The notes under the pieces were generated by a model. That model had not been told where the DNA came from, did not search any database, and saw only the letters and a program-made list of their open reading frames with translations. From IMG/VR virus record IMGVR_UViG_3300028591_000197: a stretch of DNA of 64,000 bases; one strand, given 5' to 3'. Positions 1 through 64,000 of this stretch are shown here, in pieces. Positions within the stretch are counted from its first letter, which is position 1, and each line of letters starts with the position of its first letter. This DNA is from a virus. The position numbers and the translations under genes were made by a program.

Positions 1-199
1 ATCTAATTTTTCTGTCCCATTTACTCTTCATCTTAGTTTAGGAAAGAAATCTCCTACATCTTGGATAAAACTTTTTTCTTCATCATTTGTAGCAAGGTCT
101 TCTACAATTTGCTGTGCTAACGGAAGAAGTTCACTATTTTCCCTTCCTTCTTCAGCTAGCTGTGCTAATAAGGTTATGGTGTTATTTATATTGGACATT
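1..199 (-). CDS. hypothetical protein, N-terminal part (gene continues beyond window start)
   Basis: ATG at about 199 on the minus strand with an ORF running off the window edge (MSNINNTITLLAQLAEEGREN...). Read through TGA as sense. Confidence 0.35.
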
Positions 200-1008
200 G
201 GATTTTATTTGTATAAGTGGGTAAAGGTTAATGGAATAGGTTTCAACTTACTCTTGGTTTAGGTTGAGTTTGTTTTCTATATTTATTTGCTCGTATTCAC
301 ATAGTAGGACCAGCTATAGCAGAGTTTAATAAATCAATTTTTTGCTCATCTGTGTCTCGTGTATTTAGTGTAGATATGAAAGCTTTTATTCATTTCTCAG
401 TTTGTTTGTGTAATTTAGTTCATCTTTTTACTTCATCAAAATCCATAATTAATTCAACAACTTTATCACTATATCATTCTTCCTTCATTCTACATCTAAG
501 TTTTTCTATTTGTTGTTCCTTTATTTGTGTCTTACTCAGCTTTACGCTATCAACATTTTTTTCGCTACAATTATTAATGGCGTAGCCATTAGGTGTACTC
601 GAAACGGCGTCAGCCGTTGAGACTTCTTCATCACATTCGCCTTTAGTATTACAAGCATTTATATATTTAGTACTATAAGCATTTGTGACGATTTTTTCCA
701 CTGTTGGTAAAATCAGTCACTTGGATGAGTTTGGCTTATCACCTATACTTTCCCCTAAACCATCTGACTGATTTTCAGTCACTTGGTTATATCCATCTGA
801 CTGGTTTTCAGTCACTTGGTTTATAAAGGCCTCCGTTATCTCTGCTCTTTTACTTTCTCCAAAATAATATTTAACTTTTACATATTGTTTGTCTTCAAAT
901 TTTCATTGTACATTTTTCTTTCTAATTATTTCAATTAATCACATATCCATAAGAATATGTTTTATCCTACGGAATTTATCCCTACCCCACCCAAGAGACT
1001 TAACCATA
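186..1008 (-). CDS. hypothetical protein containing NQVTENQSDG tandem peptide repeats
   Basis: Continuous minus-strand frame once TGA is read as a sense codon. The track ORF 474..701 is an internal fragment of this gene. Start and stop positions are approximate. Confidence 0.35.
720..835. repeat. short tandem direct repeat (about 27-33 bp unit, ...ccatctgactgRttttcagtcacttggtt...), 2-3 copies
   Basis: Seen directly in the sequence. It encodes the NQVTENQSDG peptide repeats of the overlapping minus-strand gene. Confidence 0.6.
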
Positions 1009-1204
1009 AAGCTATCATTTAGCCAAGGCTGGTTAGTCTCCTGAATTTTGCTATGTTTTTGATATGCGATATATAGTAAGACGGCTTCGGCCCCATCTTT
1101 TCAAGCCACTTCTAAAATCTTATCTATTGTATAGAATGAGGTGGCAAATATTTCGTTTATATTGATTGGCTCTTTCATTTTGTTGGTGGGGTGGTGGGGT
1201 AAAG

Positions 1205-1501
1205 CTAATTTATTTTTTGATGGTCAGTTAGAAATTCTAAATCACCATAATCCATCTCATCATTATATATTTTTTCGCGCGATACATAATCTATCAAATC
1301 TGATAATAATAGTTTACCTGGGAATTCAATGTAAGCAATGTTGATTTTATTGATAAGATTATTGTTTACGTCAATGAATGAATGGTCTCTAATATTTTTT
1401 GCTAGATATAGCATTCACTCTACAGATATAAATGTTTTAATTTCTTCTCCAGAAGTTAAATGGAAAACGACCGTCCCCTTTTCTAAATAAATTGTGTCCA
1501 T
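1205..1501 (-). CDS. hypothetical protein (about 98 aa)
   Basis: ATG at 1501 and TAG stop at 1205, with one in-frame TGA read as Gly. The track ORF 1205..1414 is the C-terminal part. Confidence 0.4.
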
Positions 1502-1867
1502 CTCATAGTTTGGTTAAAAAATAAAAATAAGATGAAATAATTAGGTAAACAAAAACCCCGACAGTTGTTTGCCGAGGTACTACACAGTTAACGAGTTATT
1601 TACACAGCCTCGGTTTCCGTGTAGATAACTATCGGGGTAAATGTTTATCATCTGCAAAATAACTGTTGCAGAATAAATTTCAAGAGAAAATTTTCTCTTC
1701 TATCTATAGATTATCAAAAATTGTTAAATTTTTATAACATTAGATAAGTCCAGGTCTTAACTATATAATCATACGCTAATTTTAAAAATGTCAAAACAAT
1801 TTTTTTTATTTTGTCTCAAAAAAATATAATCTATTAGTAGAGAACAATATTTACCCGCCACACCACT
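1502..1867. promoter_or_regulatory. divergent intergenic control region: long imperfect hairpin (about 1556-1650) plus a degenerate copy of the conserved promoter motif (TATAATCTAttagTAGAG, 1825-1842)
   Basis: The outer stem is ccccgacagtt / aactatcgggg enclosing further internal inverted repeats. The motif variant sits about 25 nt upstream of the first plus-strand gene. Confidence 0.35.
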
Positions 1868-2815
1868 ATGTCACTATTCAACGATTTGCAATGAGAGATT
1901 ATAGAAAACCCAGAGAAGACAAGAAATTACCATAAGATTAGAGCTCAAATAAATGAGAAACCACAAGAAAAAACAGAGAAACAAAAGAGGAAAGAAATGA
2001 GAGAAAGACTCTGACCAGTGGAATATAAAAAACGATATGATAAACAGCGCTACAAAAAACAGAGGAATTTGTTTAAACAAAGATATGAAGAACATAGAGA
2101 TGCTTTTAATGAGGATATGCTAAACGAGATTATAGATGAGCTTTGGCCAGGGAATAATATTATTAATCGAGATAAATATTATTTAGAAAAGTTTAGAGAT
2201 GATGATGTGAAAAGTAATTGATATAGATTTGCTTGGCGAAGTTCTAGATTAGTAAGAATTAAATGGAAAGATTTACCGAAACAACTATTACCATTTAAAG
2301 TTGTGAAGGTTAGAGGAATGGAATATTGAATAAAAAATATGAATGAAGTACAGAACAAAGCATATCAATATCTTAAGCCACATATGGAGGAATTCAAAGA
2401 TGTTACCCTTTTTCTTCAAAAGAAACAGAAACCATATGATTATCCTACATATGCAACCACTAGAGAATTTGAGAACTTTGTTAGATGAGGGCCAGTAAAT
2501 CCTTGACATATCTACTTAGTGTTTGATGCTATGCGTAGATGAAAGTATATGGCCTCAGAAACATATCTTTGAAGAAATAGCTTTATCTTTGGAGATGTGG
2601 TAGTAACTCAAACTTGAAAATTATTTAGGATAGCGTTAGAGAATAATCTACCTTGGCTAACTAAAGATACCGTGGAGGAGATACACTCCCTGAAAATGGA
2701 TTGGCGAAAAAACAAATGAGATAAGATGCCACCTATATATATTGTAAATGATGCTTATTTAATAAAAGTTCATATTAATGAACGAGAAGATTTATTTTAT
2801 ATAGTTCCTACCTAA
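1868..2815 (+). CDS. hypothetical basic protein (about 315 aa); positional candidate for terminase small subunit
   Basis: ATG at 1868 lies in the same frame as track ORF 2018..2221 and reads on through several TGA codons. It stops with TAA at 2813-2815, overlapping the TerL ATG in a TAATG arrangement. The N-terminus is Lys/Arg-rich (KRYDKQRYKKQRNLFKQRYEE). Confidence 0.45.
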
Positions 2816-4965
2816 TGTATTGACGACTTTATAAAGATTGGGATAACGATAGAGGGTTGTTCTATGATTGAGACGAAACAAATCTAAAATACACTCTCGA
2901 CCCAAAAGAAGCTAAAGAGCGATTTGAAAAAAACAAAACATTAATGGTTTTGGTTAATATTAAACGTCCGCCTGATTTGGAAATCCCTATTCAGATTCCA
3001 TTAGGAACGGATAAAATTCTGAAACAAGATATAGATACGAAGTTTTTAACCTTTATTACAAAGGGTGCTGTATCTACGAGAATGGAATTTATTCTTTCAA
3101 GATTTATGGATAACTATCATCTTGATAAGGATTGAATATTTCATAGGAGAGAAAAAGAAGATGTGAGCGCTTTAGATAGCACTCGTAATGTCTTGGCACT
3201 ATGTATGATGAAAGATATTATTTTGTGAATATTTAGAGTAACACCTTTGAGAATTCCTGCTTGAAAAAATAAAAAAGATTTTGGAAAGACAGAATATATT
3301 GAGTGGGACATAGGTGAAGACTTTGGAATCGAATACGAAGTTCAAGGACAAAAATTTAAAACAAATTTATTCGGGGTGTATAAGCCAAAATTATTTGAGG
3401 CTATGCTTGCAGATACTTGAAGAACATTTAATTGATTTTGTCTACAGCATTGGCAAATGATGGTTTGGCTCCTTAGTTGATGAGTTACCTATGTTATTTG
3501 ACCTAGGTGATGAGGTAAATCACTCTACATTAACTGAGATAGTGCGGGGTATTTACTAAAGGAAATAACAGATAGCAATGAAAAAATTCAAGAGTTTTCA
3601 GTACTCTATATGGGATTATCGCAAAAACAGAATGCTCCATATATGGTTTACTCACAGCAAATGCTTAATAATCTACTTGATTTGCCGAGCTTTTGTAACA
3701 AGTTACCTGATAGTACAGGTTTATACATCCTTGACTGAGACAAACAAAGAAAGCTTGAATATGTGACAACTAATCAAAATGACCCTACAAGGTCAAGACG
3801 TACAAGAAAGTTTGTGTGAGACGAAGCAGACTATCTTGACTGGGACTATGTAGGTACAGCAATGGCCACAGCAGATAGTCTTGTGACACTTATCTCTACA
3901 ATTGGCCCAGATACACAAGCTTGAAACTTCTATAAAGGTTGGCTTAATGCTTACAAAACCCAAAGGGATTACGAACCTATTGATGTGCTAATACACGATA
4001 TATGGACGAAATATGGAATGCACTTGTGTACATCTAGGAAAGATTATTTGAAGAAGATAAAGAATTGAGACTTCGAAAAAATGAGGGCGGAGTTTATTCA
4101 AAGAAGACCTGAGGTAGCTTTACATTTTACAATGGATGATGTAGAGTTCTTGACACAAGAGCAAAAAGACGCACAGGTTATAAGGGTGCTTAATGCTAGA
4201 GGTTATGACTATATGCTCGCTGAATATTATGGAGAATATTCAACTGACCAGACAATTTTTAATGTGGAGTGAAGACAACTACAATGTCCATCTAGTTGTG
4301 ACTATTGGGTAGTTGGGTATGATGAAGCTGACACATTCGACAATCCTTGATTGTGTATATTGTGATGTAAGGATGGAAAGTACTATATCAAAGAAACTTA
4401 TAACTTAGCTAAGGAAAGTAACGAAAGATTTGCTAAAATGAAAAGTGTAATCCAAGACTTGAAAAACTCTTGAAAGCCTGTGTATTTAGTACTCGATGCG
4501 TCTCGTGGATGGGCTGCAGCTAGAGAGCTTGGAATGCTTGGTATGCCTGTTGATATGCTTATTAAGCGGACTTGAAATGTTACATACCAACCTTGAGCTA
4601 GGCATAACGTTTGAAAGGCTTGGTGTATTGAGATGATAAAGAGTTCTTTCTTTGATACAAACATTCTCTACATTGACCCAGCTTGTTATTGAGAAAATGG
4701 TTTAGTTGAAGAATTAAGCCACTTCAAAAAATACAAATCATCTGCTAGATGAGAGAAAAAGAAACACGATGACCAGGTTTCTTGAATGATGCTTGTACTT
4801 TATTTTGCTTGGTTCCACGACCAATTATGAACGAAAGATGTTGCAAAGATAAGTAATCAAAAGTCAAGTCAGCAAATTGCTGAATGACTTCGAGCAGAGA
4901 GATATCAGAAACCCAAGGAAACAACTTGAGATTTCCTTTCTAATTTGAAAAATAATTTGTTCTAA
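2815..4965 (+). CDS. terL: terminase large subunit (about 716 aa)
   Basis: Walker A reads GPRGGGKS, with three of its four glycines encoded by TGA. Walker B reads KFVGDEADY. The C-terminal nuclease-type region has LVLDASRGWAAARELGM and VVGYDEADTFDNPG. The gene sits at the start of the structural block, and track ORFs 2944.. and 4081.. lie in its frame. Confidence 0.7.
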
Positions 4966-5350: not shown

Positions 5351-8331
5351 ATGAGTGCAAGTGATGATGTTCTAAATCTATTCAATAATCGTAATAATTT
5401 ATTTAAATTACCATCTCAAAAGACTCTAGCAGAGAAAATAGCAGATGGGTCAATATCACAACCAGTATCAACTACCAATGAAGTACAAGAGGAGCTATTC
5501 ACTCCTAGTGCAATTTCTTCTGTTGTGAAAAATAATTTAAATAATCCAGGTTCACCTATATTAACTAATGGTTGACAGGATGATACCACTACACCTATTA
5601 CGCAATCATCACAAACAGATGTTGTATCGCAAGAACTACAAGAAACTAATGCAAATGATAATCCAGAGACACAATGAATTAGTTGATTCTGGAATAATCT
5701 TAAAACCTCTATGAAGGCTAGTAATGATTACGAAGCCAAGAAAAAACAAATAGCTCTATGATATGATGAAGATTCTGAAGAAGTTCTTTATCTAGACCTA
5801 GATGAGTCTGAATGAATTACAGATTCTCTTTGAGGAATTATATGAACTCGTGAAGCATTTGAACAAGCTTATGAAGACTATCTTTCTGCAGCATCTGACC
5901 CTACATTGTCAGAACAAGAACAGGCTAAATTACTCCTTAAGTTTTATGATGATACAAAATGATTATTTAGACTTAAGTGAGATGATTGGTATAGTGATGC
6001 TATCTTTTTCCAAACGGATGACACAAAAATGTTTTGAAAAAGAAAGGACCAGTATAGTGAGGAAACATTAAAAAATTTATCTGCTAATGGGACAAAGGCT
6101 TGAAAGTTTGAACCAACGTTTAATGAATGGCGAGAGTATATACAGACACAAGCAGAAAATGAGGGAATTCAAAAAGAAATTCTAGAATGATACGGAATTG
6201 CTTCAGATACTACAACTACAGAATTAGACCTAGAGGACTCAGACAAAACCCAATTAAATAGCTTGTTTGATAGGGCTATGGCTTGAGTGTTGCCAGCTAT
6301 TACTGAAAATATTCCTGCTGCCGAAACACATCATAATGTAATTTGAAAACTTAGAATGATGGCTAGAGAGCAGCTTTCGGACGTAGATGAGATAGCACAA
6401 TGAGTTTATAATATTGAAAAACTTGTATTACTTAAGCCAGAAAGTGAGCGAAATGAATACGATAAAGAAGTAGTTACTACAGCAAATGCCTTTAGACAGA
6501 TGGAAAAAGATTTTGCCGATTGATTAAATGATTTCTTCTTGCAAACAATTAAGGGTTGAATTGATGAGAATTGACAATTGACTAATTTGCTAGATATATA
6601 TGAAGACTGAAAAGAGCTTTGGGAAGTTTTATGAGATAAGGTTAGAGAAGACTTACCAGAATGAGTGATTGAATTTGCTCCCTGAAAAACTGCTAAAGAT
6701 GTCTTAGATAAGAATTGGTCTGTAAAGGATATATTCCAAGAACTAAACAATAGGGTTCGTTATCATTACTACAAAAATAATGTGCACGATGATAGTCGAT
6801 GGGGACGTCGTTGGGATGATTTGCAAAGATTTCGATGATTAGCTGAGGAGTCTTGGATGGAGATATGACAAAATGTGTGGCAATCTATTAGTTCATTATG
6901 GGATAACCAAACGGAATATTCTGACCAAGATATAACAAAAGCTAAGCTATTAGACGCAAATTGATTTTTGTATGACTATTTCTGAGGAGATACTATATAT
7001 AAATACATTTATTGATTAGAAGAGCTTTGACCAGAAACTGCTTGAAGCCTTTGAGCTATGTGGCTTGGGTCAAAATGATTTTGAGCGGCAGGTAGATGAA
7101 CAGGGTTCTTTACATCTATATCAAATAATATTTCTAGAAGTAAAAATGCCATCAATGCTATTAAAGCATTAAAGTGATGAACTCTTTTAGAAAGAATGGC
7201 AGCCCTAGATAAAGCTATGGCTTGAGTGTCTACTTGAACGAAGAAGTTGAGTGATATATCAAAAGCACTTACTACAAGCGAGAAGCGATGGATATGAACA
7301 AAATTAGCGGCACAAAAATTAGATAAACTAATTACAGAAGGTATTGTAGACCAGACAATGGATGCCTTATGGTCTCCATTTGATACTGAAGCATATTCTC
7401 CTTTAAGTATGCAATTATCTCTATGGTGAACACTTGGACTTACAATGCTCCCAGAATTAAATAAAGGTAAAGCCCTTACTTGATGGCTAACTAGGTCTGT
7501 TCGTGATACTTGAAACGGAATATGGGATATGGTTGACTTCTTAACATCTTCTAAAGAATGAGCTGAGCAATTCTATCAAGCATTCTGAAAAGATATTAGA
7601 ACAATGTCTCTTACAGACTTAGAAAATTTCAGGAAAAGATTTAAGGAAATGGAGTGAGCTGCAATTAAAGCTTACAATCAGTTACCTGAAGCTTGAAAGG
7701 AGGCGGCCTGACAATGGACGAAAAAAATGATGTATGATTATATTGCTCAGGCATTTGGAAGTAATTCAGAGATAGCAAAGAGTGTTAGAACTATCCTTAT
7801 GAATAAAAAAACCGACCCCGCAGATATAATCAAATATATCGGAAGGAATGCTTGAACAGTTTCATTTGGACCTTATATCTCTACAATTAAATTTAAACAA
7901 TGAACTAGGTGACTCGTATCTTGAGCATATGACCCAAGTCTAGATGCTCTTGGATGAGGATTTGCATCTAGATTAAGTTGAGGATTTACTCAAGATGATA
8001 TAAATAAACTTTCTAAAATATCTCATCTTGATGAAAATTGAAATCCAAAAGATTATGGTGATATAGTTAAGAATCAAGATAAATTATTCTATAAAAGTAA
8101 TTGAAAATTCTATTTAACTGAGGAATGATTAGAGCGTTTCTGATTATCAGCCTCACACGAATCTCTAGAATCTCTAGGTATTAGCTTAGCTAGAGCTGAA
8201 GAGGTTAAGGAGATATTAAGGGAGAAGATGAAATGAATGGGAAAATTATCTGATGATGTAATTGATGATATAGCTGAGACTTGAGCTTATGATGAAGTAT
8301 TAGCTAAAATGAGAGAAATAGTTTGTTAATT
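5351..8331 (+). CDS. giant protein 1 (about 993 aa), unknown function; virion or internal protein candidate
   Basis: The frame is continuous from ATG 5351 to TAA at about 8329 with about 60 in-frame TGA codons. It is Glu/Lys-rich and predicted helical, with recurrent AMAGV and GGF motifs. Track ORFs 5351.. and 6406.. are fragments or shadow ORFs of it. Confidence 0.55.
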
Positions 8332-8352
8332 TTATTTATGAAGTATCTATAA

Positions 8353-11300
8353 ATGGCGAAAGTTAAAAATTGTGAAGATATGGCAAACATATTAGCCGTA
8401 TCTTTGTTCACCTGAGATGAAGAGATGGCTAAAGCCTTAGCGGAGGCTTCATTCCAAAAGAGAGTGGCTATTTCTCGTAGTAAGAATTTGGATGTGTCTA
8501 AGGATAGTAAAGAGATAGATGAGCTTACAAAGCAATCCTGACATCACCTACATTTGAGAGCTGCTTCTGCAGACATACAGATTATGTCTATAATTCAAGC
8601 AAAGATTCTTAAATGAGAAGGTAGAGTTAAGGAAGCTGAGGCTATATTATGAGAAGCTTATCGTAGAATGTGATGAACTATATGATGATGAATTGATTTA
8701 TTAAATATGGTTCAAAACGCAAAGCCATCTGAATTGGATGAAATAGCTAGGCTTCGATGATTGAGTTGAAAAAAAGCCGATGAAGTTCTCGAACAAATAA
8801 ATGACCAGATAGCTAAGTTTGAGTCGTCAAACTATAGTATAAAACAGCACGCGGACTTTGTTCGTGACGATATGGCAAAGATTAAAAGTAAATATAGGAA
8901 GAAAGAGCGAGATGATGAAAAAATAGAGAAGGAAGTTGAAAAGGCATATAGGAAATGATTAAAGGATATTATGGAGGGAAATAACCCTACTGATATAGTA
9001 AAGCTTGATGAGGAATGGGCTCAAATAAAAAGGCTCTATCCTGTCAATTCTTCTATGAAATGAAAGACAAAGGAAAAAATGTTGAAGGCTAGGGCAGAAG
9101 CCTGGAGTCAATATATTATGGCTAGAGAAATTTTGGCTGATTGATGAATTGATGAAGATATATTTAAGGCTTTTAAGAAATCAATTAAAACAAAAAACCT
9201 AGCTAAAAAATTAACAATAGACCAGATTATGGCCTACAAAAAATGAGACTTAGACCTTTTGTTGGCTAGAGCTTATTTAAATACAAAGCAATTATGTGAG
9301 GATTGAGCACTTAGAAAAGCTTTTAGAGATAAGTTAGTTGAGCTTACAACTTGAGAAGATGTAAGTTGACAAACTTCAAAAAGGATTCAATCTATTATAA
9401 ATACATTAAAATTTTCTGAAGAATGAGCATCGTTTGCTACTGTACTTAAATACGATAATCTAGCTAATAGTGTGATTGACCGTGGGTTAACTACACAGAA
9501 GAAAAGATGAAAGAAAATATATGAATCAATTATGAAGTTCTGTAAAGAACTTAGGGAAAATCCAAACCTTCTTGAGGAAGAAATTGTTATCGATTGAATG
9601 AAGATGCAACCTGTAGATGTAATTCAATTGGTTTATGAAATCACTTGAGATAAAAATATTGTAGCTTTGTTAAATATTGGGAAATATGATGATAGTATTG
9701 TGTTAAATGTAGCATCTCAATATTTGCTAGGGAACAATAAAGCGGCTCAAGAATCTATTTTAAAGTTATTGGCTAAATGAAAGAAATGAAGTCAAATAAC
9801 AAATACTCGTAATTTGATATTAAAATCAATTACTTGACAAGATATTGAGGATTGAGCAAAGGTTGCTTTCTATGATTTTAGAGAGTGATTATATAATAAA
9901 AACAAACTAAATAGACGTAGAGCAGACTTTAGAGAAGCTCTTGCTAATAGAAACAGATTGAGGATTGAAGGTAGTGGTATTACAAATCTATCTGAAATTA
10001 AAGATGAAAAGTTATTAGCTAAAGCTTTGGATGAATTTGAATGATGATATTTGGTTGTAAATGATATAGCTTGGAGAGATAATGAAGTATTAAGAAAAGC
10101 AGTTAAAGATAAGAAGATTACAGTTATATTTCCAGAAAGAGGGATGACATCTAATTTTGTTTGGGAGGATAAAAATCTAATCTTTAGGACTAATGATAAT
10201 AAACTCTTTGAAAAAATTGCAGGTAAAATATCTATTCAAACATTATGATGAGCTAGACCTACTGAAGCAATTGAAGAAGCTTGAAAGAAGGTAAAAAGTT
10301 GAGCCACTGAAGCTTGACAAGAGATAAATGTAGTTAGAGAGATTGGAACTATAGATGATGATATAGAAGCTGCGGCAATCAAATATTATTGAGAAATGCT
10401 TTGAGAAACTACCCCAGAGAAATTAGATGATGAGTATGTTCGTAGAATAAAGAATATGCTAGCTGAACATCTATGACTTGATATTAAAGCATTTGATGCA
10501 ATAAAAGATAAAGCTGAGCTTTGGCAGATGATTGATGAGAAATTCTGTATGGAGAAGCTTACAATGTGAAGATATGAAATGGAGATAATTGATATGTGAG
10601 CAGAAATAAAGAGAATTGAGGATATGTCTCCAGAAGAATTGATTAAGGAAATTAAACAACATATCTGAGACTATTATAGTGATGAAGCTATGCTAGAGGC
10701 TTGAGTGTTTAATCAGATTAGAGAAGCATATATAGACTTTAGAACTGCAGAATCCCCAGAAACTATTTTGATGGCTAAGTGAAGAATGATGTCTTTGGCT
10801 GCTTGAGGGCAGGCAAAGAGAATGACTATGGACCAAATCATTTCGATGTTTCAAAAATGAACGATGGCCGATGTCTATAAAGAAATGTTCTTCCCAACTC
10901 AAGATTTAACAAAGGAACAGCTAGATACTTTGATTAATAGTATCAATGATGATTTATTTGATATTATTTGTCTACAAGTAGAGAATAACTTAGTAAAAGC
11001 TTGATATTCATTACCATTGATGAACATAAAATGAATGGTGTATGACTACATTAAGACAGGTGAAATATCTACAGCTTGAGATTTTGTTAGGAGTTTTGCT
11101 CTTAAGAATAACATAAATGACACTGTAGTTGGTGAAACTTTGCTACAGTTTATGCCAAAAGAAATTAAGTTTGACTATGAAGATGCTCTATATAAAGGTA
11201 GAGATTTAACTATAGAGAATGGTCAAAGAAGTGTATTTAGAGAGGCTAAAAATGAATTCTTAGAAGACAGTTATTCTGCTCTTGCTACTATAGAGATGGC

Positions 11301-40317: not shown

Positions 40318-40337
40318 TTAATAATGAACAATTAAAT

Positions 40338-41711: not shown

Positions 41712-41712
41712 A

Positions 41713-43137: not shown

Positions 43138-43139
43138 AA

Positions 43140-44456: not shown

Positions 44457-44558
44457 GCAGGTAATACCGTAGTCAAAAATATTTTAAGACACACAAATAA
44501 TACGATGTGGATAAATTACTTACTTCAAATTATTTTATCTAAAATAAACATTTTAAGA

Positions 44559-45503: not shown

Positions 45504-45537
45504 TAATTTATTTATGTGAGAAGTTTCAACAGGGGGA

Positions 45538-52235: not shown

Positions 52236-52259
52236 TTTGTTTTTGTTTAAGAAAATAAA

Positions 52260-52769: not shown

Positions 52770-52776
52770 TTTTTTG

Positions 52777-53614: not shown

Positions 53615-53615
53615 T

Positions 53616-54003
53616 TAATTACATACATTTCTGCTCTGTATCAATCTCATCATTTCGTCGTACGTTTTTCTGTGTCAATAAGCCTGAGTATTAATTCTCA
53701 CCTTTCTTGAACTCGCCACTCTCATTTGACATTATATACTATATAGTCTGCTTTGCTAGAATAAATACCTGAAGCTATTCAGCTACATCTTGTTTCTATC
53801 ACAAAGTTTCAAGTGTTCGATGCCATAGTGTCGAATTTAACCTCATAGGTTTCTTCTCAGTCTGGGGTAGTTATTTTAATATCCCAATCTTTAAACTTAC
53901 CTTGAGCGATTTCTAATTTAGAAATCCTTTTAGTGGTAAGTAGAACTTTAGCAAATTCAATTTGTGCATCTTCCCCAATTTTTAAATCGTTTACGAATGT
54001 CAT
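53616..54003 (-). CDS. hypothetical protein (about 128 aa)
   Basis: ATG at 54003. Its TAA stop is immediately followed by the next ATG. Confidence 0.35.
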
Positions 54004-54024
54004 ATTTTTGTTTTTGTTTATAAA

Positions 54025-54468
54025 TTAATTCCAAGAGGTTTTTTTCTTTCTACCTCTTTTCTTTTTAGGAGTTTCTTCTACAGGAGTAGCCTCTATAGTT
54101 TCAAATACAACCTCCTGTTTCTTTTCTTTTTCAGTAATTTTTTCCGTTACCTTAATATCCAATTGCACCATATCACCATCTAGAATAGCATTATTTATTT
54201 GTGATGTTTCTTTGTAGGTGAAAGCATATTGGGTAAAGATTTCAGTAACATCTTCTGGAGATACCAACACAAAGCTAGCTTCGTAAGGTAGCTCTACTTC
54301 ATTTCATAGAAAGAAAGAATAATCTTTTACTTCTCTTTCTACTACAATATGCACAAGCTCTTTCTTTTCTTGTGCTTTATCTATCAACCAATTGATAGCA
54401 TCTACTAATCTATTATAGTCCCCAATACCTGGGGCCCTTCTAATGTAATCTAATTTGAACATCCCCAT
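54025..54468 (-). CDS. hypothetical protein with Lys/Arg-rich (KKKRGRKKK) C-terminus; possible DNA-binding (about 147 aa)
   Basis: Track ORF 54025..54270 extends upstream through a TGA to the ATG at about 54468. Confidence 0.4.
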
Positions 54469-55049
54469 TAGTATGAAGGTAAAACAAAATTGTCTATTGC
54501 TAAAGCATCGGTATTCCTAGTTCCCCTTTTTTTCTTCTTAGGAAGGGGGGCTTGGGACCCCAAGTACTCGGGTTCAGAAATTTTGGCCGGTATTTCGGGT
54601 TCCGCCTCAACAATGACTTTTTTCTCCTTTTGCTCCTTTTTTCTTACGAGAATTTCCTTGTCCAAGGTATCATTCTCAGTTTTAATTCTTTCTAGAGCTT
54701 CTCTTTTAGATTTATTAGCCTCAAGATATTCTTTCACTAAAGTTTTACTTTCTTTAGCAATTACCTTAAATGGCTCTGGTAGTTCTGAGATAGTCTGTGT
54801 ATATAAATCCATAACTATTGTGGCTAGTTGAAACTTGTCCAACTCTATATTGTGATTGTCTAGATACTCTTCACATACCTCAATTAGCTTAGCATTTATA
54901 TCGTCAAGCATATCATCTGGGTCAGCTTTGTTGTGCTTGATGATTACCTCCAATCATACCTTCTCCAAAGAGAACTCTAGTATTCATTGGTACACAGTTA
55001 TAAACTGCTTTAACTCTTTACGAGTTCATTTAGCGGTTGTCTGCATCTT
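54468..55049 (-). CDS. hypothetical acidic protein (about 193 aa)
   Basis: The track ORF uses a TTG start. The frame continues upstream to an ATG at about 55049 that overlaps the end of the sigma-like gene. Confidence 0.35.
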
Positions 55050-55590
55050 CTAAATCATTTTGCTCGATAAATCTTTTTACTTTAGTAGCAATTGTATCTA
55101 CTATATCTCTCACATTATAATATGTGGTTTTCATTAGTCTAGCTATTTCGTACTTTCATCTACCTTCTCATAGATATTGTAGGACTTTAGCCTCAAGTGG
55201 GGTAATCACATTGTTTACGACTAATACATATTGTAGCATATCGACATCCATATCATAGCTCCAGTGTTCGCTATCTCTAATGTCGTCGATAGTATAACTT
55301 TCTGGTCCGAATTGATTGAGTTTGTTATATAACACTCAACCTCATCTATTAAATAGATACCATAGCTTACTGATTTTCTTTTCGTTAGCAACATCTTCTC
55401 TAAGAAGAATGTTGTCTGCGATTAGAAAGCTCTCAGAAAGAATATCATCTTTGGTGTAGGTATAGTTTTTGTGACGTAATAGAGGGTTCTTCCTCATAAG
55501 TAGTTCCATATTCTCGTATAGGAATATTCTACCTTGTTCAATGTCTTTTTTATATAAATCTAATACCCTTTCATAGATATTCTTTTGCAT
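55030..55590 (-). CDS. sigma-factor-like protein with region-4 helix-turn-helix (about 186 aa)
   Basis: The C-terminus LEAKVLQYLGEGRGKYEIARLMKTTYYNVRDIVDTIATKVKRF matches the sigma-70 region 4 / LuxR-type HTH pattern. Track ORF 55342..55623 is its N-terminal part. Confidence 0.4.
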
Positions 55591-55600
55591 TTTTTTGTTT

Positions 55601-56811
55601 TTATTTTGGTAAATTGAGTTCATCTTCTAGGCACCTAGCACAGGTTACCAATGTAACTCATAGGAATTTACTTACACATTCATACATATATTGGTAAGCA
55701 GTTTCAGCCAAGTGGATATAATCTAAATCATCCATCTTTGTATTTAGAACTTCTTGGCTAAATTGATAAATGGCTATAGAATGCTTAACCAAACACCACA
55801 TATGGTCGTCACACTCTATAGCCATTTCCTTTAATTTTCTCATAGCTAATCTTCTCTCCTCCAAGAGGCTTTCCATTTTCATCTCGTGCCATACACTTTC
55901 CTCTTCCAAGTCAGCAGCTTCATCTTCTGAGAAGACTTTTCTGTTGTTTAAATCTACTTGTAGAGAATTGTATAATTCATAATGATGAGAATAGCTAGCA
56001 ATAAGATTAGCAATGAGTTCAATGAGCTCTGTTGCAGCTCAGCGTTGACTATCTTTATTCATTACATTCTATCGAGTGAGCCTTCCGTGGTTTCTATATG
56101 TCCCTCGTGTACTCACACTAAATAATCGTAGAGCTTTTCTTTTACGAATTGCTCTGCTTCATCTCTCTTAACAATATGAGTGATGTTTTGGTGCTGCATT
56201 TTCTTTTGCTTTGTGAATACAAGATAGCTAAACGAAATTGCATCTATATCTGGATGCTGTAGGAATTGGAACCAAGGGTAAAACCTTCATTGATAACATC
56301 AGAAATCTCGTTTCTCTGTTTCGTTCCATTTTTTCTTAGCCGTCTTGCAATCAAACAACATAGCACCATTCATTCACCAATCTATTTCCCCCGTCAATAT
56401 AATCTTATAACCACTAAAGTCTACCTCAACTGCACTCCTAAGGTTTCTTATATCATACATACCAATAGCTTCGTACTGCTCAGATAGAGGTATTAGTTGT
56501 TCTAGTCAGTCGTATAGCCAAGTGAATTGCTTGTCTTCTTCTCAACTAGAAGAATAATATCTCATTCTCTCTGGGTTCATCATACTTCTTGCTATCTCAA
56601 TCTGATGTTGGGCTGCCTCAACTCATTGATTAATTCTAGCAAAAACTATATTCTCCACTAAGTTTCAAACCCAATATGTATTGGCTTTTTTCTTAGGTTC
56701 CAACTCTCCAACGAATGGAGGTGTAGGAACAAGAGCTTTTTCTATCTCAGTAACTGAGACTATGATAGTTTTATAATCTTCCTTAAGAGGTGCAAATTGG
56801 TGATAGAGCAT
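55601..56811 (-). CDS. hypothetical protein adjacent to SSB (about 403 aa); possible recombination or replication function
   Basis: Continuous frame with TGA read as sense. Track ORF 55658..55909 is its C-terminal part. Confidence 0.4.
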
Positions 56812-56827
56812 TAGTAATTATTTTGTG

Positions 56828-57495
56828 AACTAAAACGGAAGTTCATCCGTATCATATTTATTTACAGGAGTTTCTTCTACATCTTCACTGTCACTAACTT
56901 CATTCTTGTAAGTAAGTAACTTAGCACCCCATTCCTGTTGTAGAACTCTTTGTTCTGGAGTTAGAGGTTTAACTGTAGTGAATGATGGGTAAGTGTATTT
57001 AACACTTCAAGTCTTTCCATCTTTAACTTCTTTCAAAGTTACAGTGTTGTTAGCTTCAGCATTTCTGTTCTCATTACTAAATGAGTTCATCCATTCTTGT
57101 GAAGCTGCTCATTTGATACAGAATGTTCTAAGTACATCTGTTTCTTTAGGGTCAATGTAATGTACATTAGTTGTAATCTTTAACCCTAAAGCCTTTACCT
57201 TGTCTTTGATATCCTTCCAAAGTCCTTCATAAAGGATTTCTCAATTGTTACTTCTAACTGTAAATGGGTCATTAGCAAATGAATAGATTTCATTTGACCA
57301 TACTCCACCTTTATCAGCTAAGTATCATTTAATGCTATAACTTTCTGCTATAACAACAAACTCTTTAGGTAAAGTAATTTCTTCTTCTTCTTGTTTGTCT
57401 CTATTCCAAGCGAAGAATTTTCAGTTCTTCCAGTTAGCCCAGGAAGATGAGGGATGTCTAGGCTTATCGCTAGTAGGTTGTCCAAAGATTGGCAT
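56828..57495 (-). CDS. ssb: single-stranded DNA-binding protein (about 222 aa)
   Basis: The C-terminal tail ...EETPVNKYDTDELPF* matches the SSB acidic tip (D-D-D-I-P-F type). The 21-nt repeat abuts its ATG. Confidence 0.6.
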
Positions 57496-57568
57496 CTTTT
57501 TTAATAGGTTAATTAAATAAAGGTAACCCTTTTTTAACGATTTAATTTTCTAAGTCAAGAGGAATTTT

Positions 57569-57853
57569 TTATTTTGTCATATAATATAGATTTTTCAGAG
57601 TCAAGAACCCTGTTTTTTCGTCTGGTGAAAAACATATAGCATCAATCAAACATCACACCTCTTCATTAAGTGATAACACAGACGCTTGTAATGGTGAAGG
57701 TAGGTCTTGTTCTAGAATGAATTGTATCAAAGACTTTGGTAGGTATACAACTCATTCCATTACATCTAGCTTGTCTCTAGTTATAATCTTAATGGTTCAG
57801 TGGTCGTAAACTACGGTGTAACCATTTACTGCTTTATATGGATTTAGTCCCAT
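57569..57853 (-). CDS. hypothetical protein (about 94 aa)
   Basis: ATG at about 57853 and TAA at about 57569. Confidence 0.3.
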
Positions 57854-57866
57854 AGTTGTTTGAATA

Positions 57867-58154
57867 CTAATGTAAAAGTTTTTCTTTCGCAAGTGCGATG
57901 AAACTTTCAGGCTTTGACCTCTCGTAGTCTTTCTCCCCTACAAGTCTAAATCTAATAGTGTAAGGATAATCTTTCCTCATATGGCAAAGGAGCCATCGGC
58001 CCTTTAGACCGAGAAGAAATTCTACTTCGGTAGAGAAGTCTCAGTCGAGTTCATCCGTCCATTCCATTTTGTTTGCTATAGCCTCACGGTATAGCCCCTG
58101 TTTGGTTTCGTTGAATGTCATAGATTTTCGCTTGCTAGATGCTGTGTTTTTCAT
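57867..58154 (-). CDS. hypothetical protein (about 95 aa)
   Basis: ATG at about 58154 and TAG at about 57867. Confidence 0.3.
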
Positions 58155-58229
58155 TACATAATATATTTTTTAAATTCCCCTTGACTTCGAATTGCTAATC
58201 TGTATAAAATACCTCGCTGTCAATATCTG

Positions 58230-58514
58230 CTAGTTGACATTTTCTAATTTTCTATTCCAACTAGCAACTCCGAGGTATCGGCAGACTTTAAATCATTTTG
58301 TTTGGGCTCTTTTCAAGCTCATTCAAACACCTTTGTATTTGTGGGTAAAGGATACATTGGTAATACGATATTGTAGATTGGCTTCTATTTTTAGCCATTC
58401 TCAATTATCATCGGCTATTAAGTAACTCCAACCTTTCTTGTCGGTTGGGGTTGCTACTATTAGCTCATTAGTTAACTGTCTAGTTAAACGCGATAGTGTG
58501 TAATAATTGTTCAT
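58230..58514 (-). CDS. hypothetical protein (about 94 aa)
   Basis: ATG at about 58514 and TAG at about 58230. Plus-strand track ORF 58234..58425 is a shadow ORF. Confidence 0.3.
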
Positions 58515-58546
58515 CAACTCTCAACTAATATAATTTAAAATAGTTT

Positions 58547-58575
58547 GTGATACGAAAGTGGTAATATTACCACTT
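58547..58575. promoter_or_regulatory. perfect 18-bp palindrome AGTGGTAATATTACCACT followed by a T-run, in a gene-poor stretch of about 280 bp (58515-58801)
   Basis: Seen directly in the sequence. It could be a terminator, an operator or an origin element. Confidence 0.4.
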
Positions 58576-58801
58576 TTTTATCTAATCAAATGATTAGAAA
58601 CACTAGGTAGTACCGTTCTGAAAAAACAAAAGACGGTCGGCAAAATATCTAATCGATAAATTGTCCACCGTCTATGTTTAATTCCAGGCATTTCATTTTT
58701 TGTTTTTGTTTTTGGGTAAAGTTTTGATACCAACTACCTTATACTGAATTTAATATTAATTGCAAATGTTTTTTTATAAAGAGGATATAGTCTGTTCTGA
58801 G

Positions 58802-59398
58802 CTAGTCTAGCTCAAGTTTTTTGATTGCACTAGAATAGTTTTTCGTTCGTCACTTACACTCGCTAGTACAATAGTGGCCATTGAGCCAATCTTGCCCAGT
58901 GGTTCTATTCTCTCGTCATTTCTCTACATAGAGATTTACTCGATACTTGATGCTGTCTTCTATAGAAGAAAACTTTCTTTTAATGTATCCATTCGTGGTT
59001 TTCTGCATCAATCAAAAGCCGTTGTTACTAGGATACATCCCCTTCTGGAAGATAGAGCTTTCAGCATTGCTGACCCCTATTACATCCTGAATGCACTTTT
59101 TATAGTTCTTTACTTTCGAAGAGCATTCGTGTACGATAGTATAACTTACATCGTAATTCCCCACAAGCTTGTCAACTTGTTCTGCAAGTTTCTGCTCAGT
59201 CATTTCCCAAGTGTAGATGATTTGTTCCTCTTCCACTTTGGGAGTTGTAGGAACGACTTCTTCTACGGTTTCCCCCGTTAAAACAGATACTTGCATTTCG
59301 TTAATGATATCCTCGGTATGTCCTTGGTTGTATCATAATATGAAGACTAATATAATTACCATAACGGCAATTAAAATCTTCAATCGTTTGTTGGTCAT
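58802..59398 (-). CDS. N-terminally membrane-anchored protein (about 198 aa)
   Basis: Signal-anchor MTNKRLKILIAVMVIILVFILGYNQG. Track ORF 59012..59296 is an internal part. Plus-strand ORF 58874..59281 is a shadow ORF. Confidence 0.45.
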
Positions 59399-59528
59399 TC
59401 GATTTATTAAGAATTAAATCTTCCCAATGTATACTATGTATACAAAGGTGCCGACCATATCCTCTTGCCCTCTTTAGAGTAGCTCCAGATGATTGAGCTC
59501 AATCTCCGAGAACCGTTGCGAACAACTA

Positions 59529-59684
59529 CTACTCTTGGCTGAGGCTTCCACCTCTTCGTACTTTATTTCTCTCACACATTTCTTCATAGCCACACAATGT
59601 TTGGAATAAACATTGACGGCAGCTTTCAATTTGTATTCAATGTTTACAAATTGGGGTCTTTTCTTTTTCTTGGTCTTTTTCCAT
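59529..59684 (-). CDS. small Cys-rich protein (about 51 aa)
   Basis: ATG about 17-26 nt downstream of promoter motif copy 4. Sequence MEKDQEKEKTPICKHGIQIESCRQCLFQTLCGYEEMCERNK... Confidence 0.35.
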
Positions 59685-59700
59685 ATAATCCGTATAAGAA

Positions 59701-59716
59701 ATAAAAGTCTCTATAT
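59701..59716 (-). promoter_or_regulatory. conserved promoter-like motif copy 4 (TATAATCTATATATAG on the minus strand), preceded by an A6 tract
   Basis: Exact 16-mer. This is the only copy in the minus-strand early/replication-type block. Confidence 0.55.
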
Positions 59717-59725
59717 ATAGATTAT

Positions 59726-59949
59726 ATTTTTTAGGCTAATCAGTATAACGCATTATATTAAAAAGTCTATTAGGGAGCTCCTCGCTGTGCTTATTTTGTC
59801 TAAGCTTTTTTATTATCTTCCTATATTGATATGGACGAAGACTTCACCGATATGAAGACTTCTTATTCGTTTTCCATTTGCCCCTTTTATCTTTTCGTAC
59901 GTGACGACAATATGGGCAATGGCAACAACCAAAGCCCATACTTATAAAA
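59726..59949 (-). CDS. small basic zinc-ribbon-like protein (about 74 aa)
   Basis: N-terminus MGFGCCHCPYCRH... Confidence 0.35.
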
Positions 59950-60375
59950 TTAGAAGAATACATTGTAAGTTAAGATTAAATTCCAAATTAAAAAGATTAT
60001 GAATAATACTAATATTGTAGCATCGTGGAAATCAAACTTCCCCTCTAAATCTTTAATCTGTTCATCTTGTCTAACAATTATATCAAGCATCAACTTATCT
60101 ACCTTTTGTAGGTTCGCTATAATATCAATAGCATCTGATAGGTTCTCTGCATCTGTGATTTGGTTTTCCTTTATTGTCTCTATTGCTTTCTTGAATCCTC
60201 ATTCTCAATCAACTCAGAAACAAGCTTCTTCTGTAGAATAGATTCTTTCTGCATACAAATCTAAAACCCTTCCGTGCTCAATAATATCCTTAGCTACTCA
60301 GAAAACTGCTTCATTTAAGAAGTCTAAGTTTTCTCTTGTACTTTCACAAGTACATTCTTTTTTAGGCTGTCTCAT
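59950..60375 (-). CDS. C-terminally tail-anchored membrane protein (about 141 aa)
   Basis: Cys-containing N-terminus and the C-terminal helix ILVLFIIFLIWNLILTYNVFF. Confidence 0.35.
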
Positions 60376-60377
60376 AA

Positions 60378-61052
60378 TTAATTACCATTAAAAACTAAAT
60401 ATACGGTATTTGGATTCAATTCACCGTCTGCTTTCTTCCTCTCATATTCTTCAGAGGTCAAGTAGTTGACACAGTCAGCTATTCCTGCTGTAGGAGTGGC
60501 TCAAGCCGAAATGGCTCAAGCTCTAACCACAGGAGCGTGGTCATAGAGATATTCTCTTTCCCTATAGAATTCATCAATATTACCCATAGTTATTCTATTT
60601 GCATTACCTATCGTGGTTGTGGTTATTGTAGGGTGTAATCTACTTCATTTCTCTATCTCTATTAATTGTAACTCCTCTCTAAAGTATTCTCTAGGTGGAA
60701 ACTGTATTTGTGTTACATTAGGTAAGATAGTACCTTCTCTAATTGGTGACAATTCCATCTGAAGGGCTCTTAAAGTTTCGTTAAATCGCTCACCCAAAGC
60801 CTCATAAATAACTTCCGCTACATCTTGGTTCATATCTCTAGCAAGGTCTGTTAGTATAGAATACAGGTCTGGTCAAGGGACAGTCCAATTAAAATTTGTT
60901 CCATCTCTACTTTGAAACCTTATAACTCAAATAAACTCGTTTGGCTGGAGAGAGGTAGGAGTATTAGGCCACACTGTAATCACAACCCTTCAATGCATAA
61001 ATGTTTTTGAGAGTCTATTTCCCGTATCAATAATGTCGTCTTGCAGTCTCAT
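60378..61052 (-). CDS. hypothetical protein (about 224 aa)
   Basis: Track ORF 60645..60833 extends in both directions through TGA codons. The TAA/ATG junction is contiguous with the next gene. Confidence 0.4.
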
Positions 61053-61056
61053 TTTG

Positions 61057-62043
61057 CTACTTTAAGTAACTAAATATGTGGGCAATTACATCCACAGTTC
61101 GCCCATTCCCCAATTGAATATACCTTTGCGTATCGCTTACAGCACTTGTATAATTATCTGGTAGTGTCTGAAGCCTTTCGCATTCAACAGGCGTGAGCTT
61201 TCTAATTATGTCGCCATTTAACACCACATTCTTCTGGTCTCCACTAGCACAGGTTGTAGTAAGAGTAGGACATTTATCTATATAGCTTGTATACTTTAAT
61301 CTCCTATGTCCAGGTTCATATGGCATTATAGGTCTTCATCTTATTAGTTTAATTCAATTAGACATTTTACCACAGTGTGTAGTAAGAGTTCCCATCTTAT
61401 CATCTGGTCATTTAATGTTAGCAATAGGGTCTTCAAAACCTCACCAATTTGCTATCATATCAACCTGCTTTTGAGATAAGATATATTTCTCATCTACCTC
61501 CTCTAGCAAAACATCTTTCAAAGTTATTCACTTATCCTCTGGTAGTTGTATCTCTACCTTAGCATAAGTCCCATCGTCTTGTAGTTTACCTACCCAATAC
61601 AATCTCTTTCTATTCTGGGCACTAACTAAACTAGAGTTTATCTCTATTGGTGTTATTCACCAGAGTTGCTCGTTGATAATGTTAATGAAATCTTTCTTCA
61701 TTTTTACATTCTCGAGCAAGAAATATTTAGGTTTGTAATACTTGACAATGTCTACAAATTTAAAGAACAATGCACTCCTTGGGTCATTAAAGTTTAGCAT
61801 CTTACCAGCCATACTAAATCACTGACAAGGGCTACCCCCAAAGATTAAATCAATTCAATCTAATGGCCAAGTTTGCCAATCATTAACATCACCCATCTCT
61901 ATAATGTCTGGATGGTTTGTGGTCGCAACTGTAATTGCGTGTTTATCTATCTCACTAGCATAGTAATGAGTGAAGGATATTCAAGCTCTTTTTAATGCTT
62001 CATATCCACAAGCTATTCCGTCGAATAGTGAAAGTACTTTCAT
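61057..62043 (-). CDS. dcm: DNA (cytosine-5)-methyltransferase, orphan (about 328 aa)
   Basis: Motif I LSLFDGIACG, motif IV GGSPCQGFSMAGK, ENV, and the C-terminal QLGNGRTVDVIAHIF. Track ORF 61057..61326 is its C-terminal part. No restriction enzyme partner is seen. Confidence 0.65.
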
Positions 62044-62069
62044 TTTTATTTTTGTTTAAGAATAAAGGG

Positions 62070-62100
62070 TTTTTGTTAGAACAGGGTCAATTCAGGGTCA
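62070..62100. repeat. tandem direct repeat CAGGGTCAATT x2 (= TTGACCCTG x2 on the minus strand), about 35 nt upstream of the methyltransferase ATG
   Basis: Seen directly in the sequence. It is a candidate regulator-binding site. Confidence 0.4.
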
Positions 62101-62257
62101 ATTTTTTATTTATTGATACTGTTTCAAGTATTTATTAGTTCGGACCTAATATATACATTATCGGGTAACTGTGCTACCCCTTTTCAATATTCTATTTCTA
62201 GATATACCCACACACAGAAGATTAATAACTCTATCCCGAGTATGTAAACGAGGTATA

Positions 62258-62626
62258 TCAACCACTTCTGTCGTTTCTCTTTCTCCATCGAGTGATAATC
62301 TTTTCAAGTAAAATAGTTATCTTGTCCCCTATTAGACAGGGAAGACAGAGGTGAATAACCCAACTGTCTTCGTGTGTCCAATATTGTTTACAATGTCTGT
62401 TGCAATACATACAACTCTCTTCACTAATAGCTTCATAATCTTCCATTGTCTCTTCCAATAATTCACTAGCATTACTATCCAATGTAGCATCCATCCTTCA
62501 ATATTTTTCTTTCAAGTCTACCGTCCCCCAATTTATTTCTGCTAGCTCCTTCATTGTGTTATATCGATAGTCGACCCACTTAGCTTTCTTATCTACACTA
62601 GGAGTGAATGGTTTAAATCGTTTCAT
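62258..62626 (-). CDS. small C4 zinc-finger protein (about 122 aa)
   Basis: CMYCNRHC...CLPC. The track ORF extends upstream through a TGA. Confidence 0.4.
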
Positions 62627-62814
62627 TATCCTTTTACTAACTCAATAAAATCATCTAACTCTTTATCAATCATTTCTCTTATGGTATTCTTCAATTCCTC
62701 ATATTGAGTAATTTCTGGGTTATCAAAAGATGGTTCTCATAGGTGGTCTAGATTAGCATAGGAATCAACCACATCCATTATTTCATTAGCTAATTTTTCT
62801 GCTATACTTATCAT
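62627..62814 (-). CDS. small acidic protein (about 61 aa)
   Basis: ATG at about 62814. Its TAA stop overlaps the next ATG. Confidence 0.3.
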
Positions 62815-62816
62815 TT

Positions 62817-63608
62817 TTATTGCATCATCATTATAAATGAGCTATCTTCTCAAGCCATAGTTACAGGTAATTTACCATCCCATCTTTCAATCCATTTTAA
62901 TTTTACATATTCAGCACCTCATTGGTTTTGAATAGCTTTAGCTTGAATTTCAATAGCCTTAGCTTGTGCTTCAGCTGCAACAACTTTCTGCTCAGCTTCA
63001 TACTTCACCTGTTCTAGCTTATTCTTTTCAGCTAATGCATTCTGTTCAGCTGTTACCTTAGCTTCAATAGCATCGTTGAATGATTTAGAGAAGTTGAAGT
63101 TTACAATGTTAAATGATTGAATTTGAATTCCATAAGCATCTAACTTCTTGTTTAAAGCATCTTCAATTTCTTTAGATACAACACTTCTTTCTGTGATTAA
63201 TTGTTCAGCAGAGAACTTAGCTACAACAGATTTAAACACTTCTTGGATAGCTGGTTCTAGAACTTTCTCTTGTACTTTTTCTTCCCTACCTACATTTTTG
63301 TATAGGTTAACTACCTCACTTTCTTTGAATTTGTAATTCACTACAATTGTAGCATCAACAGTCTGCAAATCCTTTGAGCTAGCTTCAGTAACTCATTCAG
63401 CTTTTTGTGTCTGTATATTATATTTTACAGACTTAGTAATGAATGGAGTTTTAAAATGTAACCCATCCGTGTAAACAGTACTGTTAACTTTTCCTAGTGT
63501 AACAGTAAATCAATTGTATCCAGGTTCAACTACAAACCAAGAGTTAAAACCACAGATAACTAGGAGTAAAACGATGATACTCCAACATCAAACCATAAAG
63601 TTTTTCAT
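62817..63608 (-). CDS. SPFH / band-7 (prohibitin / HflC / stomatin-like) membrane protein (about 263 aa)
   Basis: An N-terminal TM helix is followed by EPGYNGFTVTLGKV...GLHFKTPFITKSVKYNIQTQ...TVDATIVVNYKF... and a coiled-coil AEQNALAEKNKLEQVKYEAEQKVVAAEAQAKA. Track ORF 62919..63368 is an internal part. Confidence 0.6.
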
Positions 63609-63641
63609 AACATATATGAATAAAAAAATAAAAACTAATTT

Positions 63642-63797
63642 TTATGGACGAGGTAATTTCCTTATCCAACTTTTAAGCCAATCGCTTATCCAATCACCCA
63701 GTTCACCATCTGTAGCAAGGTCAATCACAACAAATAAGAATAGCAATCAAACAATTATAATCCCTATTATAGGTCCAGTTCACCAAACTTCGTTCAT
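63642..63797 (-). CDS. mini membrane protein B (about 51 aa), paralog of the next gene
   Basis: MNEVWGTGPIIGIIIVGLLFLFVVIDLATDGELGDWISDWLKSWIRKLPRP. Confidence 0.4.
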
Positions 63798-63821
63798 AGT
63801 AATACAAACAAGAAATAAAAG

Positions 63822-63992
63822 TTATTCTTTATCTAATTTTTTATGTAGCCATTCTTTAGCCCTATCCTGTATGAGTTCTGACAACTCCCCATCAAAAAGT
63901 CATAAATCAACTATCATAAATATCACAGAGAGAAGTCCTCCAATAAGGATTATTGCTACTATAGTAAGAAAAATTCAAAGTATTAGTCACAT
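63822..63992 (-). CDS. mini membrane protein A (about 56 aa), paralog of the previous gene
   Basis: MGLILGIFLTIVAIILIGGLLSVIFMIVDLGLFDGELSELIQDRAKEWLHKKLDKE. It shares the TM + DGEL motif architecture with gene B. Confidence 0.4.
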
Positions 63993-64000
63993 AGTAATAT

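Follow-up and report, generated by a model that had tools for sequence, protein, structure and literature searches.

TGA is read as glycine throughout a 64-kb viral genome segment that most likely depends on a host with the same genetic code

The 64,000-bp stretch of viral DNA analysed here (IMG/VR record IMGVR_UViG_3300028591_000197, GC content 33.9%; hereafter the window) uses TGA as a sense codon throughout, and this codon encodes glycine, not tryptophan. We hold it highly probable that the window represents about 64 kb of a tailed-phage genome written in genetic code 25, which would rely on a code-25 host for its decoding. In cells, code 25 goes together with a tRNA-Gly(UCA) and with the absence of release factor 2 (RF2), and is found in Absconditabacteria (SR1) and Gracilibacteria (PMC10746230, PMC8629427); phages of Absconditabacteria that use this code have already been published (Borges et al., 10.1101/2021.08.26.457843, Nat Microbiol 2022; Liu et al. 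2023, mBio, PMC10746230). The kind is already described and the window is one more genome of it; near-identical unannotated contigs exist in ENA/JGI. Its value lies in being a clean, well-supported case of a virus whose rare genetic code is also that of its presumed host.

When TAA, TAG and TGA were all taken as stops in the six frames, the longest stop-to-stop open reading frame (ORF) was 455 amino acids (aa), and the ORFs of at least 100 aa totalled 4,741 aa, namely that under the standard bacterial code the window looks almost non-coding. With TAA and TAG alone as stops, the longest ORF grew to 2,767 aa and the total in ORFs of at least 100 aa to 27,305 aa. In 100 dinucleotide-preserving shuffles read with the same two stops, the longest ORF averaged 177 aa (maximum 249) and the total averaged 3,730 aa. 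Freeing TAG or TAA instead of TGA brought no ORF gain (maximum 455-458 aa); because neither yields longer ORFs and genes end at both, TAA and TAG still act as stops. A simple longest-first choice of non-overlapping ORFs with TAA/TAG stops then gave a gene map of 63 ORFs (stop codons: TAA 48, TAG 14) at a coding density of 96.7%.

In-frame TGA was counted 944 times (4.62% of all codons, next to 3.27% for GGN and 1.42% for TGG) and was present in 61 of the 63 ORFs on both strands, with all ends at TAA or TAG. This bears out a preliminary description of the same DNA, in which TGA was said to occur in nearly every gene without terminating any; its codon shares for the giant ORFs (TGA 6.5%, GGN 2.7%, TGG 2%) were largely reproduced in the five largest ORFs (5.9%, 2.8% and 1.6%, respectively), and the TGA-TGA dicodons it called common amounted to 43 in-frame pairs. 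Only g1 and g63 were free of TGA. The former is truncated at the window edge, while g63 (63574-63999, plus strand) was rejected as a spurious call; small membrane-protein ORFs on the other strand extend the leftward block there. Taken as a share of glycine codons, TGA made up 59% overall, 62% in the structural block and 43% in the leftward genes (g39-g62). The sign changes of the GC skew coincided with the strand switches, and the leftward block presumably holds early or replication genes. The features on which the following sections lean are:

1..64000, no strand assigned: whole segment, phage genome with TGA as a sense codon (glycine); 63 ORFs, 96.7% coding
1.9-51.4 kb, plus strand: rightward structural block, g4-g38, from the gene map
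51549..63608 (51.5-63.6 kb), minus strand: leftward block of small genes, g39-g62, every gene with in-frame TGA
Left end of the window, minus strand: short leftward gene pair, from the gene map
2815..4965, plus strand: g5, large terminase subunit (TerL), 716 aa with 30 TGA codons; family profile reaching standard-code Pfam terminases
3499..3522, plus strand: Walker A motif of g5, TGA-CCT-AGG-TGA-TGA-GGT-AAA-TCA, read as GPRGGGKS, in frame with the 716-aa ORF
20398..21945, plus strand: g12, probable major capsid protein, assigned from position and size only
61057..62043, minus strand: g58, C5 cytosine DNA methyltransferase with 9 TGA codons; PF00145, and M.HhaI in the PDB (E=1e-18)

The amino acid read at TGA was determined by a codon-exchange test, i.e. 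an annotation-free count of the codons that stand opposite TGA in alignments with related DNA. The alignments were pooled over six related contigs (L001, L002, L004, L009, L014 and L015), of which L001 came from a scan in which each GTDB species was represented by a single genome and the TGA-poor product of the capsid-like g12 served as query, and the other five loci were fetched via terminase, capsid-like and methyltransferase homologues. The partners of TGA were TGA itself in 379 cases and GGN in 135, followed by codons for Ser (37), Ala (32), Asn (23) and Glu (23), and TGG in only 1. When the 391 partners other than TGA were scored by a BLOSUM62 likelihood, Gly came first, with Ser 107 nats and Trp 480 nats behind. 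Between the window and L001, six gene pairs yielded 45 TGA:GGN and 0 TGA:TGG pairs, together with 11 TGG:TGG and 0 TGG:TGA pairs; in the g12 pair (74% identical), 13 of the 15 TGA codons of L001 stood opposite GGA or GGT and the remaining 2 opposite TGA. The two codons also kept different company on substitution, R, Y, L and F being the partners of TGG, and G, S, A and N those of TGA. The same picture was obtained with no outside data from the paralogous fibre genes within the window, where the partners of TGA were GGN 53 times and TGG twice; in the repeated motif L-T-A-G-T-N-I, for example, one copy carries GCA GGA and the others GCT TGA (families D4 and D7). Requiring no annotation, such a test between close relatives decisively separates code 25 from code 4.

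Comparison with remoter proteins pointed the same way. Among the 120 best relatives of the g58 methyltransferase, six have a normal Trp content (standard-code), and in these six Gly stands at the TGA positions 21 (5/6), 75 (5/6; the PCQ-G-FS motif), 129 (4/4) and 172 (4/6). The PF00145 profile scored 168.4 bits on g58 translated with Gly and 7 bits lower, 161.3, with Trp. Peptidase_C39_2 (24.6 bits) and Terminase_6C matched the Gly translation only and were lost with Trp, and TIGR02145 likewise matched the Gly translation only, at 31.8 bits, under its NCBIfam cut-off of 41.65 bits; in both Pfam and NCBIfam, the Gly translation therefore scored better than the Trp translation. With TGA read as Gly, the proteome contains 7.9% Gly and 1.4% Trp, while reading it as Trp would raise Trp to 6.0%. 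The earlier assignment of TGA to Gly rather than Trp is thus upheld by codon exchange, by paralogues, by methyltransferase homologues and by profile scores. One of its original grounds held in part: among the motifs said to need Gly, VGGGLSV and YQWGNNYGF contain one TGA each, but SFGGNATFVGN and GGYSVRCFKD contain none and are uninformative.

The Walker A codons quoted in the preliminary description were found at 3499-3522, in frame with g5. Its argument that the P-loop depends on TGA needs narrowing: TGA does encode the leading Gly of GxxxxGK[ST], along with two positions that vary, but the invariant G-K-S is encoded by GGT-AAA-TCA. Direct matches of g5 were weak, with Terminase_6C at E=0.11 and, via family profiles, the herpesvirus (HSV) terminase ATPase at E=0.27-0.62, and a direct sequence search of the PDB with TerL gave no match. 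A g5 family profile run against 1.84 billion representative proteins yielded 157 matches (terminase-family representatives P0335-P0481), among which P0411, P0467, P0387 and P0389 have normal Trp contents (E 5e-31 to 1e-5) and pass the gathering cut-offs of Pfam Terminase_6N/6C. The Walker A of g5 aligns with the G/A-x-R-R-x-GK[ST] of such remote standard-code terminases, and the Walker A, the Walker B residues D336/E337 and the acidic nuclease residues D503/E504 and D652/D653 are invariant in the g5 family. By these remote homologues, g5 is identified as a terminase. TerL is 716 aa long in dozens of relatives, and therefore their genes end at the same TAA/TAG stops. Translated as in the databases, 63 of the 71 full-length matches in the terminase clade exceed 3% Trp and are low in Gly; nearly the whole clade thus appears to be TGA-recoded. 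This suggests that the phage lineage has long kept to hosts using this code.

Judged from its gene content, with a portal, a holin, a terminase and fibre/lectin proteins, the element is a tailed-phage genome segment. The preliminary description had listed terminase, portal, capsid, fibres and holin as viral hallmarks, and all of them stood except the capsid, which received neither profile nor structural confirmation. No integrase or cellular housekeeping gene was found among the proteins scanned. We estimate that the window covers about 93% of the assembled phage, with about 5 kb lying outside, because public contigs of 67-69 kb carry the same phage: the ENA contig ERZ27256846:k141_683088 (67,086 bp) has a 3,548 bp stretch 100% identical to the window, and a 69,054-bp JGI/ENA contig carries the apparent capsid-like and methyltransferase proteins of the window phage.

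No tRNA was detected in the 64-kb window or in 16 related loci (L001-L016; relatives amounting to about 100 kb). In the window, all Rfam families stayed below threshold, and no decoding machinery (suppressor tRNA, RF1 or tryptophanyl-tRNA synthetase, TrpRS) was found. Of the ORFs, 97% are recoded, all leftward genes included, which corresponds to what Borges et al. take as full adaptation to the host code. As every gene of the presumed early block contains TGA, a standard-code cell could express nothing when infection begins. L001, a 9,978-bp contig syntenic with g12-g17 and carrying structural phage genes only, lies in a metagenome-assembled genome (MAG) of Candidatus Absconditabacterales. 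Because every gene is recoded, no tRNA was detected and L001 sits in that MAG, decoding is most likely performed by the host. The phage would then passively use the host tRNA-Gly(UCA), in a host that does not terminate at TGA, and this host would be a code-25 bacterium belonging to the candidate phyla radiation (CPR), most likely one of the Absconditabacteria and less likely one of the Gracilibacteria, a host call that is indirect but coherent.

Several observations weigh against a tailed phage decoded by a code-25 host. The capsid-like g12 had no match in Pfam, PHROG or PDB, a PDB profile search with the g12 family included, and the AlphaFold2 (AF2) model of its TGA-free 455 aa reached a predicted local distance difference test (pLDDT) score of 52, too low for the model to be of use. 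MAG binning is weak evidence, as the 76-kb relative L016 (GCA_017652345.1, JAGCBE010000101.1) is deposited under a Methanobrevibacter sp. MAG; the 5 kb of genome beyond the window leaves room for a suppressor tRNA; and TGA accounts for less of the Gly codons in the leftward genes than in the structural ones, which faintly recalls late code-switching. Code-switching itself, with TGA confined to late genes, was rejected, since all leftward genes contain TGA and the TGA-poorest gene is the late g12.

Among the other explanations, an integrated prophage or chromosomal island of a code-25 bacterium survives best, yet is unlikely. Code-25 prophages are known in both Absconditabacteria and Gracilibacteria (Liu et al., PMC10746230) and L001 belongs to a bacterial MAG, but L001 consists entirely of structural phage genes, the scanned proteins include neither integrase nor housekeeping genes, and relatives from independent assemblies lie on phage-only contigs of 65-84 kb. 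It is very unlikely that TGA means Gly in a phage of a standard-code host, on which the phage would impose the reassignment through a suppressor tRNA-Gly lying off-window or too aberrant to be detected. The Methanobrevibacter binning, the off-window 5 kb and the leftward drop in TGA use just mentioned speak for it, and so does the report that no more than 35-40% of recoded phages had a detected suppressor tRNA (Borges et al., 10.1101/2021.08.26.457843). Set against these are the early block, every gene of which already requires TGA read-through, the lack of any tRNA in the 64 kb or in L001-L016, and the one relative placed in an Absconditabacterales MAG; moreover, host-discordant phages have 26-71% of their genes recoded, mainly late ones, often carry suppressor tRNAs and show only Trp or Gln reassignments (Borges et al., 10.1101/2021.08.26.457843).

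We give even less credence to a standard-code rumen Firmicute or methanogen as the host, in which the phage itself would switch TGA to Gly with a machinery that is off-window or was undetected; if true, a stop-to-Gly code switch driven by a phage would be without precedent, the known switches being to Trp and Gln only. Better supported than such a switch is a milder reading, in which a deep terminase clade occurs in code-25 hosts alone and has rid its most highly expressed gene of TGA; if true, such purging would hint at a cost of UGA-Gly decoding even where code 25 is native to the cell. Finally, TGA as Trp (code 4), which would make the window a phage of Mycoplasmatota or a Trp-recoded gut phage in standard-code Firmicutes/Bacteroidota, has next to no chance and is refuted by the codon-exchange data: public gene callers did give all relatives W at TGA positions and TGA-to-Trp is the common phage recoding (Borges et al., 10.1101/2021.08.26.457843), but TGG opposes TGA once where GGN does so 135 times, the substitution partners of TGG are unlike those of TGA, the implied Trp content is 6.0%, and the Trp translations lose the C39, Terminase_6C and TIGR02145 matches as well as 7 bits of PF00145.

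Compared by reported traits, the phage of code 25 read from the window resembles the published ones in several respects. Code-25 phages have ~90% of their genes recoded on average and predicted Absconditabacteria hosts (Borges et al., 10.1101/2021.08.26.457843), and 44 of 50 spacer-linked Absconditabacteria phages clearly use code 25 (Liu et al., PMC10746230). As in these, in-frame TGA is dense and affects ~90% or more of the genes, both early and late ones, terminase alignments set TGA against Gly, code 25 gives a far higher coding density than code 11, and the code is shared with the presumed host. Unlike them, the window phage has a capsid-like protein with no match when searched by tblastn against 50,697 GenBank phage records, and it would come from the ruminant gut rather than the human mouth, as the sample labels of relatives (TONG22-1, XIEF21-1), read from the names, suggest. 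The Jade and Agate clades, which recode TGA to Trp (code 4; Borges et al.), have in common with it in-frame TGA, a low GC content, TAA-dominated stops and an animal gut habitat; however, the window phage reads Gly instead of Trp, is recoded in all genes rather than mainly in those for structure and lysis, and shows no suppressor tRNA, RF1 or TrpRS in the window. With the cellular code 25 of Absconditabacteria SR1 and Gracilibacteria it shares UGA as Gly, UAA/UAG stops and a heavy TGA use (59% here), but unlike these cells the window is viral, and it does not encode what the cells contribute to the code, tRNA-Gly(UCA) and RF2 loss.

Public records mistranslate the family of the window phage, with either Trp at TGA or truncation. 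In a large protein collection, W stood at every TGA (P0001-P0092, P0093-P0167), the TerL relatives had 3-9% Trp, and their alignment columns alternated only between W and G, while the JGI copy of g12 (P0093) ended at residue 455, its first TGA. The NCBI record of L016 is 29% coding as annotated versus 95% with TGA as sense, and 7.5% of the Patescibacteria viruses in VIRE are listed as 'code 4'. Homology searches, structure predictions and host statistics drawn from mistranslated records carry systematic errors. A scan of IMG/VR with the g12 protein recovered no relative.

By its place behind the portal and an acidic protein resembling a scaffold, the g12 product is the probable major capsid protein. 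TGA accounts for just 2 of the 45 Gly codons of g12, versus 62% in the structural block (binomial p=3e-16), and its 71 database homologues are nearly TGA-free, with the exception of that in L001, which has 15 TGA. This suggests selection against TGA in the capsid-like g12, which would be the most highly expressed gene. The further genes and domains of the map are:

5351..16656, plus strand: g7 (992 aa) and g8 (2767 aa), giant proteins between terminase and portal, conserved in relatives
17096..19141, plus strand: g10, portal; phrog_156, E=2.3e-9, residues 299-655
25413..26945, plus strand: g16, tail/baseplate-like, with Gly-rich beta-helix-like repeats; phrog_1469, phrog_7964
26970..44009, plus strand: g17-g26, paralogous fibre/adhesin genes, from paralogy and profile matches
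About 30116-30421, plus strand: FISUMP-like domain of g19; TIGR02145, 31.8 bits
38412-39266, plus strand: about eight tandem 90-nt (30-aa) repeats of g22 with a leucine-rich-repeat-like pattern; repeats of family D1/D10/D11
39634-40317, plus strand: concanavalin-like lectin domain of g23, from Pfam; g23 also matches a PHROG virion structural protein
44505..45987, plus strand: lysis cassette of g29 (C39-like cysteine peptidase; Peptidase_C39_2, 24.6 bits) and g30 (holin; phrog_13191, E=3e-10)
47997-48306, plus strand: three ~105-nt repeats of g34 encoding GW-STPEGPRYGGGIKTV; repeat families D1, D10 and D11 (g22/g34)
62817..63608, minus strand: g62, SPFH/Band 7 membrane protein; PF01145, E=1.4e-31

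The counterparts of g7 and g8 in relatives measure 995-1,118 aa and about 2,900-3,200 aa, respectively; g8 had no Pfam or PHROG match, and g7 matched only a PHROG family of unknown function in the PHROG scan. The placement of this pair between terminase and portal is unusual. Apart from g8, Pfam and PHROGs gave no match for g2, g4, g13, g14, g17, g18, g22, g26, g34, g35, g37-g41, g43, g46, g48 and g57, and in the leftward block the profile scans recognised nothing beyond g58 and g62. A single-stranded DNA-binding protein (SSB), named in the preliminary description among the profiles to look for, was not identified by profile, and g49 matched only a PHROG family of unknown function.

At least 8 paralogous fibre/adhesin genes share shuffled modules, such as ISATDTTY repeats, the FISUMP-like domain and a conserved 'KVxLG-QxIxKVFKGD' segment at the N-terminus, and from these modules g17-g26 looks like a diversified receptor-binding arsenal. 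Membership of these paralogues in TIGR02145 was rejected, the sole match being the sub-threshold one in g19 (residues 341-442, E=2e-7) and the others having none.

A conserved intergenic motif, TATAATCTATATATAGA, forms part of a conserved block of ~53 nt with GTTATAG at its start, and was found at the following places:

4997-5013, plus strand: intergenic copy
19217-19233, plus strand: intergenic copy
46412-46428, plus strand: intergenic copy
59710-59726, minus strand: intergenic copy
1699-1715, minus strand: weaker intergenic copy
1825-1841, plus strand: weaker intergenic copy

The motif always occurs in gaps between genes and is oriented toward the downstream genes; allowing up to 3 mismatches, 8 matches were counted versus 1.8 expected. 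No exact copy was present in the related loci. TATAATCTATATATAGA is probably a phage promoter. Two further gaps, at 16704-16751 (before g9) and 44451-44498 (between g28 and g29, the lysis peptidase), hold a 48-nt sequence in opposite orientations (88% complementary).

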